The notes below the pieces were generated by a model. It was not told the origin of the DNA. It ran no database searches and was given only the letters and a program-made list of their open reading frames with translations. A stretch of DNA of 36,057 bases. Source: Candidatus Thorarchaeota archaeon (GTDB lineage Archaea; Asgardarchaeota; Thorarchaeia; Thorarchaeales; Thorarchaeaceae). Positions 13,727 to 22,552 of the stretch are shown piece by piece; position 1 is the stretch's first letter; every line of letters begins with the position of its first letter. The DNA lies in contig JAOUFI010000019.1 in NCBI GenBank assembly GCA_029858305.1, positions 1 through 36,057 on the forward strand, given 5' to 3'. Both the position numbers and the translations under genes were made by a program.

Positions 13727-15416
13727 TTACTCTGCTTTACCATTGCTAAACCGGGAAACCTGTAGCAGTGCTACGAACGGAGTTAAGGGGAGAGGTATTG
13801 TCAAGGTAAAGAGGCCTAGAAGAATCATAACAACTAGGACCGACAGAACGATGCGTTTCATTCGGAGATGATCAATCTCACCTCCAGCATAGAGCCAGAA
13901 GCTTCTAACCACCAAAGCTGAGAGCAAGAACCATAGCAAGCCAAATAGAACATAATAGAGAGAAATCTGAAAATCACCTGTTAATGGAAAGATGAATTCT
14001 AATGGATGATGTCCCCACGAGGGATATTCTGTCCAAGATATAACACCAAACGGAGTAGCTCCTAAGACAAGCCAACGAGAGGGGCTATAGGCAGGGAAGT
14101 ATAGGAAAACATCAGTGGGCAAGAGTGCTGCGATTAAAAGAGGTAATGTGAGTCGTTCTTTGAAATCCCAATCAGTGGAATACCGATCGATAAGAGCTCT
14201 CCGCCTTATGCGCTTTGTTCCTATGGTTATAAGGATGAAGCAGCCAAGGAATACGAGGAAGATTGATGCAGTCATACCGACAATAAGGACATTGTTCTTT
14301 GGTGAAGGATCAGTATCAAAGGATCCTGCTGAACCAGGGATGGGATACCAACCATAACCAATATAGTCGTCCCACCAGTTTTGGAACCATAAATTATCTT
14401 CTCCATTATCTTCAGCATTAAGGTAAATAGTTGGCACCGAACATGTTTCTCGAGTAATTACAGTTGGTACTCCATGTCAATAGACCTTGATCATTATTAT
14501 GAATTATATTGGACTCGAATAGGCAGTCATGACCATTAAAAATAGATCCATATCGGTATGTGGATACATTATTGTTGACAATCCTAGAATTCGTCACATT
14601 GTACAAAGACAATCCACAAGAGCCTTGAGGCCCTATAGTACATTGAACGGTGTTGTTAACAATTGCACCACCATGTGAAGAATAGATGAAAATCCCCTCA
14701 TCAGAAAAACTCTGGACGCTATTATTTCGAATCATAAAATTAGGGCACATGCCTACTATAATTCCATCATCACCATTAATACCACTAATATTGTTTAATG
14801 CCACTTCAAGGCTTGGGCAATCGTATGCCCAGATTCCGTCAACTGACGAAAACAGAATTGAACTCAAAATGGTGCATGTGAGACAGCTTTCAAGGCGGAC
14901 ACACCACCACCCAGTATCAAAAACACATTCTTCAATAGAGCAGTCTTCACAATTCTCGAGGAAGATACCAGAAGCATATGATTCGATTGAGGAATTTTCA
15001 ATACGACCATTTGTCACATTCTGGAAATGCACGCTATATCGACCAGCTTCACTATTAGTTTGAAGTAAGCAACCAGATACTGCGAAGAACACGTTCGTGT
15101 TTGATATGTTCAAACAACATCCATCGAAATCTATGCTCAATGCTTCGATTACATACGGACTCTCTTCGGTTCCATTTCCAGGCCATCCTTGGAGAATAAA
15201 GTCTTGATTGCTTGAGATATTGATCGAGCTATGTGGTGTAGTATCAGCCAAGCTTACGCCTTTAACCCCTTCAGGAGCTGCAATCCTGTTTTGAATGAAA
15301 AACGCGGACTGAAAAACTGGACCAAAGAAAGATTGTGCGACCAAAAGAAGTGCACATAGTAACATCACTCTAGCGTGATACACAGCTCTCAACTCTATCT
15401 CCGCATACATTTGCAT
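13727..15416 (-). pseudogene. Parallel beta-helix (NosD/CASH-like) surface protein with C-terminal membrane domain, split by a 1-nt frameshift
   Basis: ORFs 14418-15416 and 13727-14437 overlap. Removing one T from TATTTAC (plus-strand aaa 14425-14427) joins them as ...FGANYYLNAEDNGEDNLW...NWWDDY. Signal peptide, WPGNGTEESPYVIE and NN-rich repeats are present. Confidence 0.75.
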
Positions 15417-15552
15417 ACAGAGGAATATAACCTCTGTGGAGTTTCACACTCGAAAGTTTGGGGCTATCAAGTAAATTGAAGTATATCAATCAGAAAGCTG
15501 CGTTGAACGGCAAGATAATATCGGACATCCAATATAGATTAGATGAACAAAG

Positions 15553-15900
15553 ATGACGCGTTTAAGCGAACCGAGTTTCGAAGATATCATCACTCTTGTT
15601 GCGCAGCTTGTTCCTGACATCCCTGAACCAAGTAAGATAATGTTCGAAATTGAACATAAAGACAAGGTTCTTTGGCTTGAAGGCTGGTGCGACGGGTGTA
15701 TAGCGGGAAAGGGATTCCCACCTAAGGGAAAAGGAAAGCTTCAAGAAAAATTAGATCACATTAGAAATCTGACCCCGGGATTCTTGAAGGAGCGAGCAGA
15801 AGAGAAAGGCATGATAGTACAGCATTCAGGATTCATACCACTGGATGATAAGGAGTTCCTCTATGGAGTGTCCTGGGCAATTTTCAAAGAGATGAAATGA
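15553..15900 (+). CDS. Hypothetical protein
   Basis: 115-aa ATG ORF filling the gap; contains WCDGC; no family recognised. Confidence 0.6.
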   Translation: MTRLSEPSFEDIITLVAQLVPDIPEPSKIMFEIEHKDKVLWLEGWCDGCIAGKGFPPKGKGKLQEKLDHIRNLTPGFLKERAEEKGMIVQHSGFIPLDDKEFLYGVSWAIFKEMK

Positions 15901-15951
15901 TCTCAATCCTGGTTTCCTCTAATTATCGCCTCCGTTGACTAGTGAAATGCA

Positions 15952-17151
15952 TCACAACCCCCAGTATGCCTGGAGAAAGTCCCACCACCCTTCATGCGGA
16001 AACTGCATGGCTAGATACAAGTCGCCATGCCAGAGGACATTATTGCTGAAGGATCCATAGGAACTTGGGAAAAAGATTCCCATACCTTCAGCTGAGGATA
16101 AAGCGGTACTTGTCACAACATAGATTGATGTCGAGAGAGTTCCATTCAATTCTGCCGCATAGGGGACATTGTTAACTGCCAAGGATTTTACGAATGTTGG
16201 CAGATCGATGTATGCTTCCCAACCATACTCGGACCAACCCAAATTACCCTCGCCCTTTGCTTCTGCAATCATTTCGTGAGCCGTTTCTCTATCAGCAAGA
16301 AGAAGACTCTCCAAAGCGTCGGTCATACTCCCGAGTTGCTGGACTATCAAGTCAACAAAACTCATGTCAATGGAAGCTAGCTCCACAAGCCGCGAGGCAG
16401 GGCGTTTTGCTTCATAGAATGCGATATAATTATCAACAATGGTCTTCGATAGATCAAATGCACTCATTGTTGGACTTGCAACTAGGTCTTCAAGTATCAT
16501 TCCGTAGGGATAGCCCCAGTTTGGCACGTATCCCTCTGTGGCAACTAGATATTCAATGTCCAAGCCTGCCCAGACATATTCGTACGCAACTTCAATCATT
16601 CCCTCAACACAAGCATCAAAGGCTAGAATGTCAATTTGGAAGCCTGAGAGAGCACTCGATATTTCTTGATGAGATAAGTAATCCTCAGGGTGGTCATCCC
16701 AACAACAACCCCTGAAGTCATCGCCATGGTCCCACAACACAAGAGCATAGTTGTCAGCTCTGAAATGCTTTGTTGAGAACTTGACAAAATCCGTGAGTGT
16801 ATCGGGATCGCCCATGTTTGTTTCAATCCCATTGAGTGCGAATCCGTCTACCAAATTAAGAATTCCAGCGTCGACCTTGTATAAATTGGCCACATCATCG
16901 TACCTGTCCCAGAGTACAATTACATTGACGTTCTCGGTTGATCCTACGGTCATCATATCCTCAACGTTCACGCTGCTATAGTAATCAAGATTGTTGTCTG
17001 CATCCAGATACACCATAATAGTCCATTGGGCTCCTGGTCTTGCATGAACAGATATGACGGGTAGAATTGCTGGAACTACAAGAATCATAGCCAGCATTAC
17101 CGTGATGATTTTCTTAAGAGTAGGTTGAATTCCTACATGTTCTCTAATCAT
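15952..17151 (-). CDS. Clostripain-family (C11) cysteine peptidase, secreted
   Basis: WTIMVYLDADNNL, NMGDPDTL, LWDHG (His) and FDAC (Cys); N-terminal hydrophobic signal; start taken at ATG 17151. Confidence 0.9.
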   Translation of the reverse strand: MIREHVGIQPTLKKIITVMLAMILVVPAILPVISVHARPGAQWTIMVYLDADNNLDYYSSVNVEDMMTVGSTENVNVIVLWDRYDDVANLYKVDAGILNLVDGFALNGIETNMGDPDTLTDFVKFSTKHFRADNYALVLWDHGDDFRGCCWDDHPEDYLSHQEISSALSGFQIDILAFDACVEGMIEVAYEYVWAGLDIEYLVATEGYVPNWGYPYGMILEDLVASPTMSAFDLSKTIVDNYIAFYEAKRPASRLVELASIDMSFVDLIVQQLGSMTDALESLLLADRETAHEMIAEAKGEGNLGWSEYGWEAYIDLPTFVKSLAVNNVPYAAELNGTLSTSIYVVTSTALSSAEGMGIFFPSSYGSFSNNVLWHGDLYLAMQFPHEGWWDFLQAYWGL

Positions 17152-17233
17152 TTCTCGCTCCACTCCATTAACGCGAACTGAAGTGAGCTTATACCTAAAC
17201 AATATCTTGAATTAAACCCTTACGATTGGAGTC

Positions 17234-17297
17234 ATGCCCTGTCTAAGAACTCCTGCTTTTAGGCAGGATTGAATGACGAAAAGCTTTGTAAGTAACC
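17234..17297 (-). pseudogene. Decayed copy of the nrdD 3' end (distal copy)
   Basis: Reads GYLQSFSSFNPA*KQEFLDR, then +1 nt and H, versus NrdD GYLQALSSYNPAKKQEFLDRH; 16 of 20 residues identical. Confidence 0.85.
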
Positions 17298-17326
17298 TCA
17301 GAAAAAACACTCAGAAAAAACGAGTG
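17297..17326. repeat. 12-bp tandem direct repeat CTCAGAAAAAAC x2 at the edge of the nrdD remnant
   Basis: Copies at 17297-17308 and 17310-17321, overlapped by a CACTC/GAGTG inverted pair (17308-17326). Confidence 0.7.
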
Positions 17327-17372
17327 AACATGATATTACAAAGTTTCTCAACTCGTTCGCTTGTGTACTGCG

Positions 17373-18185
17373 ATGAAATATGGAGTCTATATCTCTAACT
17401 ACGCACTTCAAGGAGATCCCAATAAATTCCTTGAATTGGCAGTTGCTGCTGAAGATGCAAAGTGGGATGGGTTCTTTATGTGGGACCACAATTATGCAGG
17501 AAAGGATGAATTGATTGCAGACCCATGGATCACACTTGCAGGCATAGCAGCACGCACTGAAAAGATTAGAATCGGCACAACAGTGACACCTCTACCAAGA
17601 CGACGCCCACAGGATGTAGCAAGGGAGGTCGCTACACTAGATATTCTTTCTAAGGGTAGGTTCATTCTAGGAGTTGGATTAGGGGGTTCTTCTGACAATG
17701 ATTATGGAAGTTTCGGAGAAGATACTGACCTCAAAGTAAGGGCTGAGAAACTAGACGAGTCATTAGCTATTCTTGAGGGTCTTTGGTCTGGTAAACCATT
17801 TTCATTCTCTGGAAAGCACTACAATATTCATGAGGTCACATTCAATCCTCGCCCGATTCAGCGACCACGCGTGCCAATATGGTGTGCAGGTACTTGGCCA
17901 ATAAAAGCTCCATTCAGAAGAGCGGCAAGATACGATGGTGTGTTTCCATTATCGATGAGCGAAGACATGTCTCTGGAGGAATATTCCGAGGTAGTAAACT
18001 ATGTCAAAAAGCATCGAGGATCCATGAAGGATTTTGATGTGGTAATTATGGGGACAACTACTGGGGATGAAAAGGTCTCGTGGATTGGTGAATCCGAGGC
18101 TCTTGGTATGACTTGGTATGTTGAAGTCATGATGGGAGATGATTTTAACAAGTTCTATGAAAGAGTTGTAAAAGGGCCTCCTTGA
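17373..18185 (+). CDS. LLM-class (luciferase-like) flavin/F420-dependent oxidoreductase
   Basis: WDH, DPWITL, IRIGTTVTPL, ATLDILSKGRFILGVGLG and PRPIQRPRVPIW; start ATG 17373. Confidence 0.9.
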   Translation: MKYGVYISNYALQGDPNKFLELAVAAEDAKWDGFFMWDHNYAGKDELIADPWITLAGIAARTEKIRIGTTVTPLPRRRPQDVAREVATLDILSKGRFILGVGLGGSSDNDYGSFGEDTDLKVRAEKLDESLAILEGLWSGKPFSFSGKHYNIHEVTFNPRPIQRPRVPIWCAGTWPIKAPFRRAARYDGVFPLSMSEDMSLEEYSEVVNYVKKHRGSMKDFDVVIMGTTTGDEKVSWIGESEALGMTWYVEVMMGDDFNKFYERVVKGPP

Positions 18186-18192
18186 AAAAATC

Positions 18193-18267
18193 CTACAGTG
18201 AATACCTGTGTCTATCTAGGAACTCCTGCTTCTTCGCAGGGTTGTTTGAAGATAGGTCTTGCAAATA
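18193..18267 (-). pseudogene. Copy of the nrdD 3' end including a stop codon (proximal copy)
   Basis: Reads YLQDLSSNNPAKKQEFLDRHRYSL* versus NrdD YLQALSSYNPAKKQEFLDRHRYSL*; 22 of 24 residues identical, 10 of them via different synonymous codons. Confidence 0.92.
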
Positions 18268-18350
18268 CACAATAAACATAAATTAAAAGATGAGTTGATG
18301 AATTTAGCATTCCTCTTACGATGAGGGAGAATTGAAGGTGGCCTGGTAGG

Positions 18351-19694
18351 ATGATGTGGAGAATACGATATTGTTCTGCCATATTTGTTTGTTTCACACT
18401 CATTCTGGTTTCTACTCATTCAATCGCAACCGAGACCACGAATGCAGAGCCAAGTTTCGGACCCAATTCAATACCAAACATCTACACCCAAAGTAGTGTA
18501 AATGAAACAGCAGCATATGGACCGCCCTTTGTAGTATTCGTTAATTGGGGTTGGACAGGCAATCTCACATACACATATTGGGATCTAAACGGGGATAAGG
18601 GCATTCCTAATGCTAATGTCACATGTCTATCCTTCGTATGTGATGGGATTTATGACCTAGGAAACGGTTCTTATTTGGTCAAAGTAAACACTACCTATTC
18701 CTGGGCTCCGGAGTATCTGTATCTAATTGTTGCCTTCGATAAAACAGGATTTGAGAATCAAGTTGTTGTGACTGAAATGCATTTGTATCCCGCACCCACA
18801 AATCTTGTTGTTGTTATACCAGAAGAGAACCAGATTGATAACTACCCTCTTTGGCTTATGATCCCCCTCGGTGATGCAATAGACATTCAATTTTTCTATA
18901 ACGACACAGATGACTCTGATGGTCATGTGGGAGGACTAGCTGGCGCATCCGCTAGTGCAACCATCGTTGGTCCCACGCTTACTGAGCAATATGTACAACT
19001 CACAGACCAAGAGAATGGGTATTATAATCTGACATTTGATACAACATCTGAATGGCTGTATGAATCTGTAGGATGTACGCCTAGGTCAAATTGGTTGCCT
19101 TATTATATTCACATTCAGCTCGCTCTTGAGAACAGAGTTCCATGGGATCGTACAATCGAAATCACCATCATAGATATACCAACAGAAATCCAAATAACTC
19201 CTCATTATGAACCATTATATCCATTACATCTTATCCCGAGTGGCAACTTCATATTCGTCTCTTTGGTGGATATCTGGCCTTCTCATGAAGAGGCGCTCGT
19301 TCGGGATGTAAGCATTTCAGTAGAAACTTATAACTCATCATTCATAGAGGTTCGTTCAATCACCGAAGATCCTGAAAATCCAGGAGTCTATGAAATCGTA
19401 TTGTTCAATAATGTTCCAGCTTCAGTACAAGCGACCATTCCCAATGGTGGATGTATACCAAACGAAATCACGTATGCATCAATAGTATTCTCAATCTTTG
19501 TCGAGAAAGAAGGGTATGCAAGTCAGGAAATCACAATTGCGGCAGATCTTATAGCGGTCGGTGGGGGGGGCTGGGGACCTCAGCCACTGGCGGGTGTTCC
19601 AATATTAATTGTAATTGCAGTTATAGTTGGAGCTCACTATTTCCGGAAACAACGACAGCTGCATTCTACAGTAGCATCAACTGAAATTGATTAA
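18351..19694 (+). CDS. Secreted, membrane-anchored beta-rich surface protein
   Basis: Signal peptide; repeated DLGNGSY / DQENGYY / ENPGVY turns; NxS/T sequons; C-terminal TM helix + RKQR. Confidence 0.75.
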   Translation: MMWRIRYCSAIFVCFTLILVSTHSIATETTNAEPSFGPNSIPNIYTQSSVNETAAYGPPFVVFVNWGWTGNLTYTYWDLNGDKGIPNANVTCLSFVCDGIYDLGNGSYLVKVNTTYSWAPEYLYLIVAFDKTGFENQVVVTEMHLYPAPTNLVVVIPEENQIDNYPLWLMIPLGDAIDIQFFYNDTDDSDGHVGGLAGASASATIVGPTLTEQYVQLTDQENGYYNLTFDTTSEWLYESVGCTPRSNWLPYYIHIQLALENRVPWDRTIEITIIDIPTEIQITPHYEPLYPLHLIPSGNFIFVSLVDIWPSHEEALVRDVSISVETYNSSFIEVRSITEDPENPGVYEIVLFNNVPASVQATIPNGGCIPNEITYASIVFSIFVEKEGYASQEITIAADLIAVGGGGWGPQPLAGVPILIVIAVIVGAHYFRKQRQLHSTVASTEID

Positions 19695-19708
19695 GGGGTA
19701 CTTCTCAG

Positions 19709-21850
19709 TCATAACGAATATCGGTGCCTGTCAAGGAACTCCTGCTTCTTTGCAGGATTATATGACGAGAGCGCTTGCAAATAGCCTGTTATTCTGCTGA
19801 ACACCTCGACTCCCACAAATCCGCACTTCGGACAGGGGATTTTTGAGAGGTCATCAATAGACGCAAACCTTGCACTCCGCCAATCAATACCACTCTGATA
19901 GTTGCAGTTCGGGCACTGTAAAACATCCTTTGTGAAGCTCCAATATGAGTTCAGAGTCTCTGTAGCAATCTTCTTTGTCAGCTCCCAAAGCGCATCAGGA
20001 TCTGGATTTGATTCACCAAGGTAGACATGAGTGAGAGCACCTCCATCCATGTACGGATGGAACATCCCTTCCTTCTTGATCCGTTGTGTCAGAGGAAGTT
20101 TCGCACCTACGTAGAGGGTCGTGCTGTTGGTATAGTAGACATTGGAACCATCACCCTTGAGATATTTCCTGATTCCAGGATACGCCTTGTAGTCCTTCAC
20201 CGCAAGACGACCTGCTGCGCTCTCAGCTGGAGTACGAGTGACACCAAAGTGGAGACCGGTCTCTTTCTGGAACTCTGCGGCTTTCGCTTTCAGGTGCTTG
20301 AGGACTTTGATTCCGAAACGTGTTCCCTCTGGTTCATGTAGATGGTGGCCAGTTATAACTTCAGCCATCTCGTCAAAACCAACCGTGCCCAACAGGAACT
20401 CACGTCGATTCATATCGATGAGAGGCTCACCATTTGGCTTGGGCTGTGTATAGAAAGGAACACTCCCGCTAGCAATCAGCTTGTCCATCAGCCGCTTCTT
20501 CTCAAGGATGACTTGTTTTGATAGTTCGACGTACTCGTCTATCTTCTCAAAGAAATGTTCCTCATCAGCTCTGCCTAGCCACGCGGCACGACCGAAGTTT
20601 GGTGTGACCATCTGCGAGGCTCCAAAGACCATATTTCCACTCAGGAACTCATCAAGTTCCTCATCACTACTCGCAGTCCAGAGATGTGAACAACAACTAC
20701 TGCAACCAGCCTCTATCTTTGATCGCCAGTTCAAGTAGTTCTCGAAATAGGGAGAACCATGTTTTACAGTGAGCTCAGCGACAAGCCGCCATGACTCATC
20801 ATACTCAGGTCCCATGAACTCTTTCCGAAGCACGATGTTGGGCTTTGGAAAACCGAAGCCCTTGCCCTTCGCATCACCCTTAATCATGACTTCCATGAAG
20901 GCATTGAAGAACAACCGCGCTTCTTCCTCATAGTCGCCATATGTGACCTCGGAAACCTTACCGCCAGGAAGTATTGCTGGAATATTACGCATAATCTTAG
21001 GAATACCGGGAGTAAGGTCAACACTACTGAATATCACCTGACCACCGCGCGCTACATACTGTTGGGTCAAAGTGAAGATCAACTGCTGCGCAGCTTGTTT
21101 GATCTTATTGTATGGCAGCCCTTTCATGAAGGGAGCTAAGAATGTATTGAAGTAGAAATATCCCTGACCGCCTGCAAAGGAGCTCTGAGCAGCAGCCAGC
21201 CAGATAGCGGCATGGTTTACTGCAACAGAGAGGTGTTGTGCAGGACCTGCGGCACTTGAGTGCATGCCACCAAGCCCATCAGGTGCAATACCTAGCGTAA
21301 GGACCTGTCGCATATCCCATGTGGCACAATAATCACGCGTTGAAAAATACTCTCTATCTTTGATGTAGATATCGCCTTTCAAATGAGCATCTGCTAGATG
21401 AGATGGTATTGAGAGGTAGGTATGTTGTTCCATCACCTGGTCGTGAACAAGTTTTGCAATCGTCTCAGGATTTCGCATGAGATTCGCATTGGATGTATGA
21501 GCACCGGGGTTATTAATGAGCAGACCGAGGTCGTACATAGGAATTCCAACACGAGTATAGAGGATACGTTCTTTCTCAAATCCCAGCTCAGCAAGGACAC
21601 TGTTGCACATCTCTCGAATTAGAGGACCGGATAGGAATTTGATACCAGAGGCAACAAGTCTATCCATGACCTTGACTGCCACAAGATGAGCATCAGCATG
21701 CGCGAGGTTAGCTTCCAATACAAGACTTTCAATGATTTTACTAGCATCGAAGGTCTCCATAGTACTGCTGGTGGTTCTGACCTTTGGCATCTTTTTCTCT
21801 CTGATGCGAAGGTCATCTGCATCTGAAATAGTGCTTCGAATGTCAGTCAC
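19709..21850 (-). CDS. nrdD: Class III (anaerobic) ribonucleotide reductase with N-terminal ATP cone
   Basis: ATP cone (FDASKII...IREMCNSVL), AHLKGDIYIKD, GGQ, FPKP, SCC finger loop, TPAES, YYTNS, CPNC/CPKC Zn site and glycyl-radical motif SRITGY. Confidence 0.95.
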   Translation of the reverse strand: MTDIRSTISDADDLRIREKKMPKVRTTSSTMETFDASKIIESLVLEANLAHADAHLVAVKVMDRLVASGIKFLSGPLIREMCNSVLAELGFEKERILYTRVGIPMYDLGLLINNPGAHTSNANLMRNPETIAKLVHDQVMEQHTYLSIPSHLADAHLKGDIYIKDREYFSTRDYCATWDMRQVLTLGIAPDGLGGMHSSAAGPAQHLSVAVNHAAIWLAAAQSSFAGGQGYFYFNTFLAPFMKGLPYNKIKQAAQQLIFTLTQQYVARGGQVIFSSVDLTPGIPKIMRNIPAILPGGKVSEVTYGDYEEEARLFFNAFMEVMIKGDAKGKGFGFPKPNIVLRKEFMGPEYDESWRLVAELTVKHGSPYFENYLNWRSKIEAGCSSCCSHLWTASSDEELDEFLSGNMVFGASQMVTPNFGRAAWLGRADEEHFFEKIDEYVELSKQVILEKKRLMDKLIASGSVPFYTQPKPNGEPLIDMNRREFLLGTVGFDEMAEVITGHHLHEPEGTRFGIKVLKHLKAKAAEFQKETGLHFGVTRTPAESAAGRLAVKDYKAYPGIRKYLKGDGSNVYYTNSTTLYVGAKLPLTQRIKKEGMFHPYMDGGALTHVYLGESNPDPDALWELTKKIATETLNSYWSFTKDVLQCPNCNYQSGIDWRSARFASIDDLSKIPCPKCGFVGVEVFSRITGYLQALSSYNPAKKQEFLDRHRYSL

Positions 21851-22155
21851 CGGAACTCACGTACCTCCCTTCTGATGGTTTCAATGTCAGGTATCTGACC
21901 ACTATAGAGCATCTTCATGTTGCCATTATTCTCAACAATAATCGATGGGGTGCTAGCTATGAAGATCTGATGTTCTAATAGAATGTACTCAAAATCCGAG
22001 TCCATTTCTCTTAGGTCTACTGTCTTAATCAAAACATCAGAATCGCAAAAAGCCTCGTTAATCACTGCTTTTGCCGCAGGACAATTGACACATCCGTCCT
22101 GAGTGAATAGATATAGAGTCGGCTTCGTAGCTAATCCTCCCGGCTGATGAATCAT
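21847..22155 (-). CDS. NrdH/thioredoxin-like redoxin coupled to nrdD
   Basis: LYLFTQDGCVNCP and STPSII; stop overlaps the nrdD start (GTGA 21850-21847); GGGAGGGAG precedes ATG 22155. Confidence 0.8.
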   Translation of the reverse strand: MIHQPGGLATKPTLYLFTQDGCVNCPAAKAVINEAFCDSDVLIKTVDLREMDSDFEYILLEHQIFIASTPSIIVENNGNMKMLYSGQIPDIETIRREVREFR

Positions 22156-22156
22156 A

Positions 22157-22270
22157 AACTCCCTCCCGGCATGAAGGGGCAAACTACTCTTAGTCCTATG
22201 AGAAATAAAAGCATTGTCACGGTCGGAATCGGCTTCTCGTCTAGCTCTAAGCCTTCGGAGAGAGGGAGTC
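22157..22270 (-). promoter_or_regulatory. Candidate structured 5' leader of the redoxin-nrdD operon
   Basis: Nested complementary segments, with GACUCCCUCUC pairing with the SD-containing GGGAGGGAGUU; TATA-like TTAATA about 40 nt upstream. Confidence 0.45.
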
Positions 22271-22552
22271 GTTCGCACATTATCCTAAGATTTCATTCCC
22301 TTGAGTACCTATTAAGGTCCTAGAGAACTAGAGTATGTTAGCACCGTTTAGAAGCATAGTTTTACTGTTCAAGGTCCTTCCAACTGAACAAGTATCTAGT
22401 AAAGGATACCAAAATATGATACAAATGAATATTCCATTTGGCGCGGAATATGAATGCTACTTGTGGGCTTGGAAGAGGGAGCGTCTTAAATGGAAAACCT
22501 AGAATAGGCATACCGCTTAGCATTCTTGTTGACTAGGCTCGGTGAAACTGAT

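Follow-up and report, generated by a model that had tools for sequence, protein, structure and literature searches.

A probable gene-cassette array anchored on the 3' end of nrdD in a Thorarchaeota genome

Two kinds of described system, integrons and tandem islands that restore the 3' end of their target, come closest to the locus considered here, which lies downstream of nrdD, the gene of the anaerobic (class III) ribonucleoside-triphosphate reductase, in a Candidatus Thorarchaeota archaeon. The stretch analysed, called the window, is the whole contig JAOUFI010000019.1 of 36,057 nucleotides (nt); as contig C129 it belongs to a source genome (GCA_029858305.1) of 3.04 Mb in 205 contigs that is 88.9% complete. 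The last codons of nrdD recur in the window between single cargo genes, and we consider it probable that the 3' end of this essential gene serves as the anchor of a gene-cassette array. In integrons and in attC clusters without an integrase, as here, cassettes of mostly one gene stand between recurring sites, and their order and content differ between relatives; with integrons the locus also shares an insertion that appears favoured next to the anchor. The cargo of integrons, archaeal ones included (Ghaly et al. 2022, PMC9668308), is likewise rich in small proteins of unknown function and in defence genes, according to the accessible text of that paper. In tRNA-linked islands and in the tycheposons of Prochlorococcus (bioRxiv 10.1101/2020.12.28.424599), direct repeats copy the 3' part of the target, which the incoming element restores; older units are pushed outward, degenerate partial copies lie further out and the content varies between strains, all of which the accessible part of that report describes and the present locus shows as well.

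The first-pass annotation of the window, made from the sequence alone, had proposed an integron-style array. The single-gene cassettes between recombination sites and their variability between relatives bear out that description; beyond this it is an analogy, and the array is not an integron by membership. No IntI-like protein is found by PF00589 in the source genome (88.9% complete), nor by a hidden Markov model (HMM) of integrases in that genome or in the 97 nrdD-bearing sequences; instead of attC structures there is only a hairpin of 5-6 bp, with z-scores of -0.2 to -2.9 in 8 folds; and the cargo does not form co-oriented, promoterless cassettes, being opposite to nrdD in the window and on either strand in relatives. 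The nrdD repeats are copies of coding sequence and not folded palindromes, the cargo has no common promoter, and the site lies inside an essential gene. As in tandem islands, the repeats are same-orientation copies of the 3' part of an intact target. Tycheposon islands contain integrase-bearing elements and integrase remnants in the accessible account, whereas none occur in the 97 nrdD loci: an integrase is found in 0 of 50 open reading frames (ORFs) of cassettes, and in none of the ORFs of these 1.2 Mb, and no nrdD tail lies near 20 Thorarchaeota integrases. From tRNA-linked islands the nrdD array differs further in its protein-coding target, with a codon-level signature of selection, and in its mostly single-gene units of about 1 kb. 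Tandem accretion at a target's 3' end has reportedly also occurred at the fda gene of Streptococcus thermophilus, with integrative and conjugative elements (ICE) and cis-mobilizable elements (CIME). The logic of a 3'-end-restoring stack is known; what makes this array notable is that its anchor codes for a protein, that its spare tails appear to be maintained in functional form and that no engine can be recognised.

A third precedent is the integrase of pTN3 from Thermococcus nautili (PMC8371274), an element-borne tyrosine recombinase of low specificity that exchanges any short identical segments and that, if such an enzyme were supplied in trans, could act on the tails of different anchor genes. 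By the accessible text of that work its segments measure at least 104 bp and its products are chromosomal inversions, not captured cassettes; no such integrase was found in the source genome. The aloposons of Heimdallarchaeia, giant-gene transposons that target tRNA genes, were considered and are unrelated. We found no description of arrays of this kind in the literature covered, outside which the supplementary tables of archaeal integron loci (PMC9668308) fall; in the accessible text of that paper, nrdD and Thorarchaeota have 0 occurrences. Among the papers listed for nrdD together with attB and integrase, none dealt with archaea, judged by titles and abstract openings.

The anchor is a complete nrdD gene, present as a single copy in the whole assembly and full length both in the window and in relatives. 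Its product matches the Pfam family NRDD with E=1.6e-134 (residues 121-711; profile positions 2-562 of 562). Class III NrdD proteins carry a C-terminal glycyl-radical motif, R-I/V-x-G-Y, which appears in the anchor protein as ...SRITGY..., 25 residues from the C-terminal end; the Gly codon of this motif (19784-19786) lies directly outside the repeated segment. In a direct-repeat search the three tail copies formed the largest family of the window: 19716-19783, within the working gene end (tail 0), 18200-18267 (tail 1; 81% nt identity) and 17227-17294 (tail 2; 62%). Recomputation gave the same values as the first-pass annotation for tail 1, namely 22 of 24 residues identical to tail 0, 10 synonymous codon differences (beside 2 non-synonymous ones) and a TAG stop, and translation of tail 2 again gave 16 of 20 identical residues and an in-frame TAA. 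At the end of tail 2, what had been read as an additional base is not one: compared with the orthologous tail of a related locus, L059 (L with a number denotes fetched nrdD loci), the window has a deletion of 34 nt, which removed the last five codons and the stop. The deleted 34 nt are also present in contigs of three public sequencing runs (X2-X4). Each interval holds exactly one gene, on the strand opposite to nrdD, as had been described.

A profile built from 110 tails recognised four sites in the source genome, three in the window (E=8.9e-18, 4.5e-16 and 3.2e-9) and one on another contig of that genome, C2:4159-4230 (E=2.2e-11), and the next-best match had E=0.26. Since these are the only sites, the nrdD tail motif is neither a chance similarity nor a dispersed repeat, which settles the question of its specificity raised at first pass: it is confined to the nrdD locus and one small contig. 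The fourth site (L004 1470-1541) is a degenerate nrdD tail, ...HQEFLDRHRYRL with a stop, located behind a gene for a NosD-like surface protein.

The extra tails diverge in the manner of coding sequence. Comparison of 43 near-full-length extra tails with the nrdD tail of their own locus gave 250, 150 and 509 differences at codon positions 1, 2 and 3, and the differing codons were synonymous in 387 cases and non-synonymous in 215. The synonymous share rises along the tail from 0.49 (codons 6-13) to 0.72 (codons 14-21) and 0.77 (codons 22-29), and it takes nearly the same course, 0.48, 0.70 and 0.81, in 378 pairs of true nrdD tails from array-bearing loci. A stop codon directly follows codon 29 in 51 of 62 extra tails. 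In the array of L084, with its nine tails, Ser is encoded now by TCN and now by AGY codons, with no change in the peptide (YLQSLSSFNPAKKQEFLDRHRYTL). Because the extra tails vary as true nrdD ends do, they are best regarded as former or potential working gene ends, in agreement with the earlier proposal that they once terminated functional nrdD alleles. A protein-coding anchor allows a test by synonymous and non-synonymous changes, and by this test the spare copies are of working quality. Variation that is codon-periodic and preserves the protein also speaks against neutral decay in place and against a DNA or RNA signal. The latter explanation, in which the copies would be functional signals of neighbouring genes (a promoter, a terminator or an attC-like hairpin) and not gene ends, could draw on the position of each window copy just upstream of an opposite-strand cargo gene and on the 6-bp hairpin TCCTGC-N6-GCAGGA in the window copies. 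Perfect copies of this hairpin, however, occur in no more than 6 of 48 true tails and 8 of 57 extra tails, and L084 with its nine extra tails lacks it; the folds mentioned above include no full-length hairpin; and cargo stands on either strand relative to the tail. We therefore regard the signal explanation as very improbable. The same counts led us to reject TCCTGC-N6-GCAGGA as the core site of a recombinase. A further candidate was a replacement peptide for oxygen-cleaved NrdD, after the model of GrcA, a spare part for an oxygen-cleaved glycyl-radical enzyme; it was discarded, as the tails have no Gly, no start codon and no upstream open frame.

Related loci were retrieved, 59 from species-representative genomes and 37 from metagenome contigs, and were searched with five tail variants; removal of 5 duplicates left 67 sequences with a complete nrdD end, the window included. 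The nearest public relatives are labelled Thorarchaeota, Promethearchaeota (Asgard) or unclassified archaeal metagenome-assembled genomes (MAGs). One or more extra tails on the same strand follow nrdD in 27 of the 52 non-redundant loci with at least 1 kb of downstream sequence and in 15 of the 37 loci with at least 5 kb; relatives with variable cargo between nrdD tails, which the first-pass annotation had predicted, are thus common. The number of extra tails per locus is 0 (39 loci), 1 (8), 2 (12), 3 (4), 4 (1), 5 (2) or 9 (1, L084). The 67 tail-to-tail units measure 71-4690 bp, with a median of 963, and a few of them are multigene units of up to 4.7 kb. Since several loci, among them both complete Thorarchaeota chromosomes of the set (L023 and L029), have no extra tail despite 10 kb of downstream sequence, the array is common and not universal. 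The left edge of the copies is almost always the Tyr codon after the glycyl-radical Gly, and a few copies also keep the Gly codon. The only inverted copy seen in the 97 sequences, comprising codons 7-29, stands at L045:339-398 (-), some 9.6 kb upstream of nrdD.

Repeats of this kind might also arise from assembly or binning, through chimeric joins between strains at a repeated sequence. Public runs were examined as assembled contigs; run X1 probably is the source sample and hence not independent, and the other runs contain at most 20% of the sampled words, so that window parts uncovered in X2-X4 do not count as absence. In X1, single contigs span tail 2 and the nrdD end. At tail 1 there are just two contigs, sharing an overlap of 30 nt; a branch departs within this tail, at 18223, and other sequences also follow the nrdD stop. 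An X4 contig joins cassette 2, which carries a luciferase-like monooxygenase (LLM) gene, directly to nrdD without cassette 1 (joint 18223>19726). Two loose-end sequences from the run contigs had no match among 137 loci. The thin coverage and the branch at tail 1 would suit an artefact, as would the many contigs that break at the array: 15 of the 67 stop less than 1 kb after nrdD, an effect that strain variation at the array would itself produce. Against it stand the 27 loci with this architecture, assembled separately in different studies and by different assemblers, long contigs included, and the single contigs across tail 2 and the nrdD end. The artefact explanation is hardly credible, and the repeated nrdD tail copies downstream of nrdD are real.

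The content of the arrays turns over between relatives. Counted from nrdD, the LLM cassette (83-90% amino acid (aa) identity) takes the first place in L009, the second in the window and in L010, and the third in L012 and in L059; where it is second or third, newer units stand between its gene and nrdD. A cassette encoding 246 aa is first in L015 and second in L012 and L016, followed by a different unit each time. Between L059 and the window the body of nrdD is 96% identical and the distal C11 peptidase gene 95%, whereas the cassettes between them differ, L059 having a TPR gene, a gene for a small membrane protein and the LLM gene. These observations agree with the proposal, made at first pass, that units of a tail and a cargo gene entered repeatedly at nrdD. 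The decay with distance from nrdD that had been described at the same time holds as a trend over the first three ranks, where 16 of 28, 9 of 20 and 2 of 8 tails are intact, but fails in L084, whose tails at ranks 5, 6, 8 and 9 are intact.

The cargo is largely unrelated between units (67 of 113 ORFs are singletons). It comprises surface proteins with NosD/beta-helix, Ig-domain or leucine-rich repeat (LRR) architecture, small multi-pass membrane proteins, TPR and zinc-ribbon proteins, an ABC transporter pair, a NERD nuclease, a MoxR-VWA pair, MvaI/BcnI-type restriction-modification pairs, a hydrolase, a PLP enzyme and TFIIB. Some cargo stop codons abut the next tail. Two kinds of cargo deserve separate mention. 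Proteins of 81-147 aa with several hydrophobic helices and no Pfam family recur at L084:9568-13335, L085:4408-8322, L086:2626-3477, L049:1394-1807 and L059:2049-2468, with several paralogues in one array; their start codon abuts the next tail and they always read away from it. Members of 116-147 aa were considered as small, IS200-like transposases and rejected, as they are multi-pass hydrophobic membrane proteins without a Pfam family. A unit of an MvaI/BcnI-type restriction enzyme and an N4/N6 DNA methylase occurs at L046:13046-14545 and L098:16334-18045, with 72% nt identity over 2.2 kb.

Several displaced tails are closer to the true nrdD ends of other genomes than to their own nrdD. Tail 1 of L021 matches tail 0 of L053 at 70 of 75 positions, the Gly codon included, and tail 2 of L021 matches tail 0 of L022 at 67 of 75; in L044 the nrdD end is of the L023 type, but a tail behind it and the flank that follows belong to the L022 type. 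For tail 1 of the window, the best match to any other true nrdD tail (57 of 75) equals that to its own nrdD, and trees of the tails are without resolution, their 72 nt being near synonymous saturation. These relationships bear on the possibility that the tail was duplicated once, long ago, and reshaped within lineages by unequal crossing-over, gene conversion and illegitimate insertion, without exchange of units between genomes. Such a history would fit the left boundary at the Tyr codon in nearly all copies, and exchange points that vary, as homology-driven events would make them. It is nevertheless improbable: the tails are nearly saturated with synonymous changes yet keep the protein, like real nrdD ends and unlike neutral copies left in place, and tails of foreign affinity, the composite L044 locus and the unrelated cargo of different units all argue against it.

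The junctions indicate how units may have entered. Where cargo at least 90% identical stands in different contexts, the 3' part of the preceding tail and the 5' part of the following tail are inherited with it and the other halves are not. In the comparison of L085 unit 1 with L095 unit 0 (cargo 98% identical), codons 6-13, 14-21 and 22-29 with the stop match at 16/24, 23/24 and 27/27 positions in the preceding tail and at 23/24, 19/24 and 19/27 in the following one. Likewise, tail 1 of the window and tail 0 of L009 agree at 44/48-47/51 positions over codons 14-29 and at 9/24 over codons 6-13, and the 3' two-thirds of tail 1 travel with the LLM cassette in other genomes. Co-inheritance of half-tails with cargo is what would result if a circular unit and a resident tail underwent one reciprocal exchange within the middle block, the most conserved part of the tail. 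Between the window and L059, identity is about 94-96% up to the Gly codon and about 54% from the Tyr codon onward, with codons 6-13 matching at 13/24. For the trio of L053, L021 and L024, the simplest reading has an insertion at the Gly/Tyr boundary and, after it, a deletion inside the middle block.

In the cassette-array model that we favour, a unit would usually measure about 0.5-1.5 kb and hold one accessory gene, together with a copy of the last 24 nrdD codons, from the Tyr after the radical Gly to the stop. It would enter by a single reciprocal exchange of the Campbell type, in which its own tail recombines with that of the resident nrdD or with any other tail in the array. After entry nrdD would be intact, its end supplied by the incomer, and the previous tail would be left behind the new cargo. 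Repeated entries would stack units outward, and exchange between tails would delete or release them. As a unit's tail becomes the working NrdD end in first position, lineages with broken tails would be lost, and the tails would stay protein-like. The model builds directly on the array structure, the cargo turnover, the coding-type tails, the co-inheritance of half-tails and the absence of a recombinase in or near the arrays; to these it would add a circular intermediate, transfer between cells and an enzyme.

No recombinase, transposase or integrase domain occurs in the 50 cassette proteins. The HMM, built from 14 Thorarchaeota tyrosine-integrase catalytic domains, gave nothing at E<=1 in the 8,933 ORFs of the 97 nrdD sequences (1.2 Mb), nor in the source genome, in which PF00589 (Phage_integrase), PF00239 (Resolvase), PF16795 (Phage_integr_3) and PF01797 (Y1_Tnp) were also without a match at its 88.9% completeness. 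The first-pass annotation had correctly stated that the locus holds no integrase; the unlinked tyrosine recombinase that it suggested looking for did not turn up in these searches of the source genome. PF00589 matched in 16 of 41 sampled genomes of the family (G000-G040) and in 1 of 4 other members of the genus. The 25 family genomes without a match include 13 of the 20 with at least 90% completeness and at most 5% contamination, and the Xer-type resolvase of chromosome dimers may be missing, or too divergent, in many Thorarchaeota. The 143-aa product of the gene upstream of nrdD is not a recombinase, judged by its domain matches.

The same searches weigh on a different origin of the units, as scars of full-size integrative elements (viruses or plasmids) with their own integrase, later deleted down to one gene and not themselves mobile. 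Elements that restore a 3' end and stack in tandem are well known, as far as the accessible texts report (bioRxiv 10.1101/2020.12.28.424599; PMC8371274); integrases do exist in the family genomes just mentioned, and a few units are multigene. No integrase domain or fragment was seen, however, in any cassette ORF or any ORF of the 1.2 Mb. The 20 regions around Thorarchaeota integrases contained no nrdD tail (best E=0.18) and no tRNA gene, and a degenerate tail pattern had 0 matches in viral contigs. The units are compact, to judge by their median spacing and the cargo stops that abut the next tail, and the same single-gene unit recurs with its half-tails in different contexts. Scars are consequently an unlikely explanation, if the least unlikely of the alternatives. 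A free-standing homing endonuclease with co-conversion of the tail was rejected as well, as it would explain replacement and not duplication, and the cargo genes are not nucleases.

For the engine of the favoured cassette array, junctions that lie mostly in mid-tail, with no fixed point, leave both host homologous recombination and a trans-acting integrase possible. Host recombination on the conserved middle block of the tail is the leading candidate, with a chance somewhat short of even; a tyrosine integrase supplied in trans by another element, for which the pTN3 integrase of Thermococcus offers a precedent, might be responsible with a lesser chance; and something undescribed appears rather unlikely.

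Several points weigh against the cassette-array model. The loci come from related MAGs, so that the counts are not independent events, and decay with distance is only a trend, as the intact outer tails of L084 illustrate. The exchange point is not uniform: pairs of cassettes place it in mid-tail, and the window/L059 and L021/L053 comparisons at the left edge. Tail 1 of L059 (1906-2037) extends about 45 nt further into nrdD than all others (encoding ...KIPCPKCGFVGVEVFSRITG), so the homologous segment that units bring with them varies in length. The mid-tail, left-edge and longer-copy cases together do not fit a simple model with a single site. The public runs, covered as assembled contigs, showed neither a circular cassette nor an excision junction nor a transfer; the model does not explain how a gene first gains a tail, the origin of new cassettes; and with the source genome 88.9% complete, a recombinase gene may be unassembled.

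Other conserved 3' ends of the source genome are repeated in a similar way. At C205:127318-137765, the 16S rRNA gene is followed by at least 7 copies of its 3' trailer (84-108 nt, 88-98% identical). A second array of the protein-gene type is formed by tails that read ...EIFG(A/P)DYLPYRQEKQM before the stop, between small units on C2, C46, C52, C77 and C112. In a genus relative (L167:5787-7031) this tail forms the 3' end of the gene for a 414-aa acyl-CoA dehydrogenase. Of 12 other genomes of the genus, 10 contain copies, with a maximum of 14 in one genome; no anchor gene was found in the source assembly. Contig C2 measures 4,961 bp, and its nrdD tail stands inside the array of acyl-CoA dehydrogenase tails, in the reverse orientation to them; it may be that a unit passed from one type of array to the other. 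Several unrelated docking sequences, variable exchange points and the lack of a recombinase gene together incline us towards a homology-driven process or an enzyme that is not bound to a sequence. On this footing we tentatively propose, as a possibility that is rather less than even, that Thorarchaeota have a general gene-capture system without a cassette-borne or array-linked integrase, in which the conserved 3' ends of indispensable genes (nrdD, acyl-CoA dehydrogenase and 16S rRNA) serve as docking sites.

The features of the window and the acyl-CoA dehydrogenase tails are collected in Table 1. The protein of cassette 1, with hydrophobic segments at both its N- and C-terminus, appears surface-anchored; no Pfam family matched it, and a homologue (43% identical) is the first cassette of L012. 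The cassette 2 protein matches Pfam Bac_luciferase with E=2.8e-45. NosD-like genes form the distal flank or the cargo in relatives (a cluster of 8 NosD-like ORFs). The two NosD ORFs of the window (332 and 236 aa) overlap by 20 nt, and both cluster with single homologues of 560-1690 aa in relatives, so that a frameshift, a sequencing error or a real split would explain the pair.

Table 1. Features of the nrdD locus in the window, with the related tail copies on other contigs of the source genome.
Feature	Position	Strand	Description
nrdD, anaerobic (class III) ribonucleoside-triphosphate reductase	19709..21850	-	713 aa; array anchor; C-terminus ...SRITGYLQALSSYNPAKKQEFLDRHRYSL, stop
Tail 0, working nrdD end, repeated segment	19709..19783	-	codons Y6-L29 of the 29-residue tail + TGA
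Cassette 1	18268..19708		one cargo gene, 18351-19694 (+), 447 aa
Tail 1, intact displaced tail	18193..18267	-	YLQDLSSNNPAKKQEFLDRHRYSL + TAG
Cassette 2 (LLM cassette)	17298..18192		luciferase-like monooxygenase/oxidoreductase gene, 17361-18185 (+), 274 aa
Tail 2, decayed tail	17238..17297	-	codons G5-R24, in-frame TAA; reads GYLQSFSSFNPA, stop, KQEFLDR
Distal array flank	13727..17202		C11 peptidase, 115-aa ORF, NosD/beta-helix protein
Clostripain-type C11 peptidase	15952-17202	-	distal flank
115-aa ORF	15553-15900	+	distal flank
NosD/beta-helix surface protein, two overlapping ORFs	14418-15416 and 13727-14437	-	distal flank
Thioredoxin/glutaredoxin-like 143-aa ORF	21847..22278	-	nrdD upstream neighbour; weak matches, E=1e-3 to 4e-3, below curated cut-offs
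EIFG(A/P)DYLPYRQEKQM-type tail copies	C2 247-297, 1952-2002, 4260-4310, 4920-4961; C46 10455-14205; C52, C77, C112		

If the cassette-array model is true, these loci would constitute a route of gene flow without recognisable mobile-element machinery in the archaeal group closest to eukaryotes. Array sites would be hot spots for surface, membrane and defence genes, and the arrays would explain why Thorarchaeota assemblies break at certain housekeeping genes. A protein-coding anchor would provide a rare internal clock together with a quality test, and the state of the spare tails suggests that units return to the working position of an essential enzyme at a rate sufficient to keep them functional. 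If the wider proposal of several docking genes is also true, the gene-capture system would be a functional counterpart of integrons built from different parts, in which units must supply a working gene end, and it would be driven either by host homologous recombination over very short stretches or by a recombinase yet to be discovered that is homology-guided or programmable. A dedicated enzyme, if one exists, must handle several unrelated targets in one genome and would be of interest as a tool.

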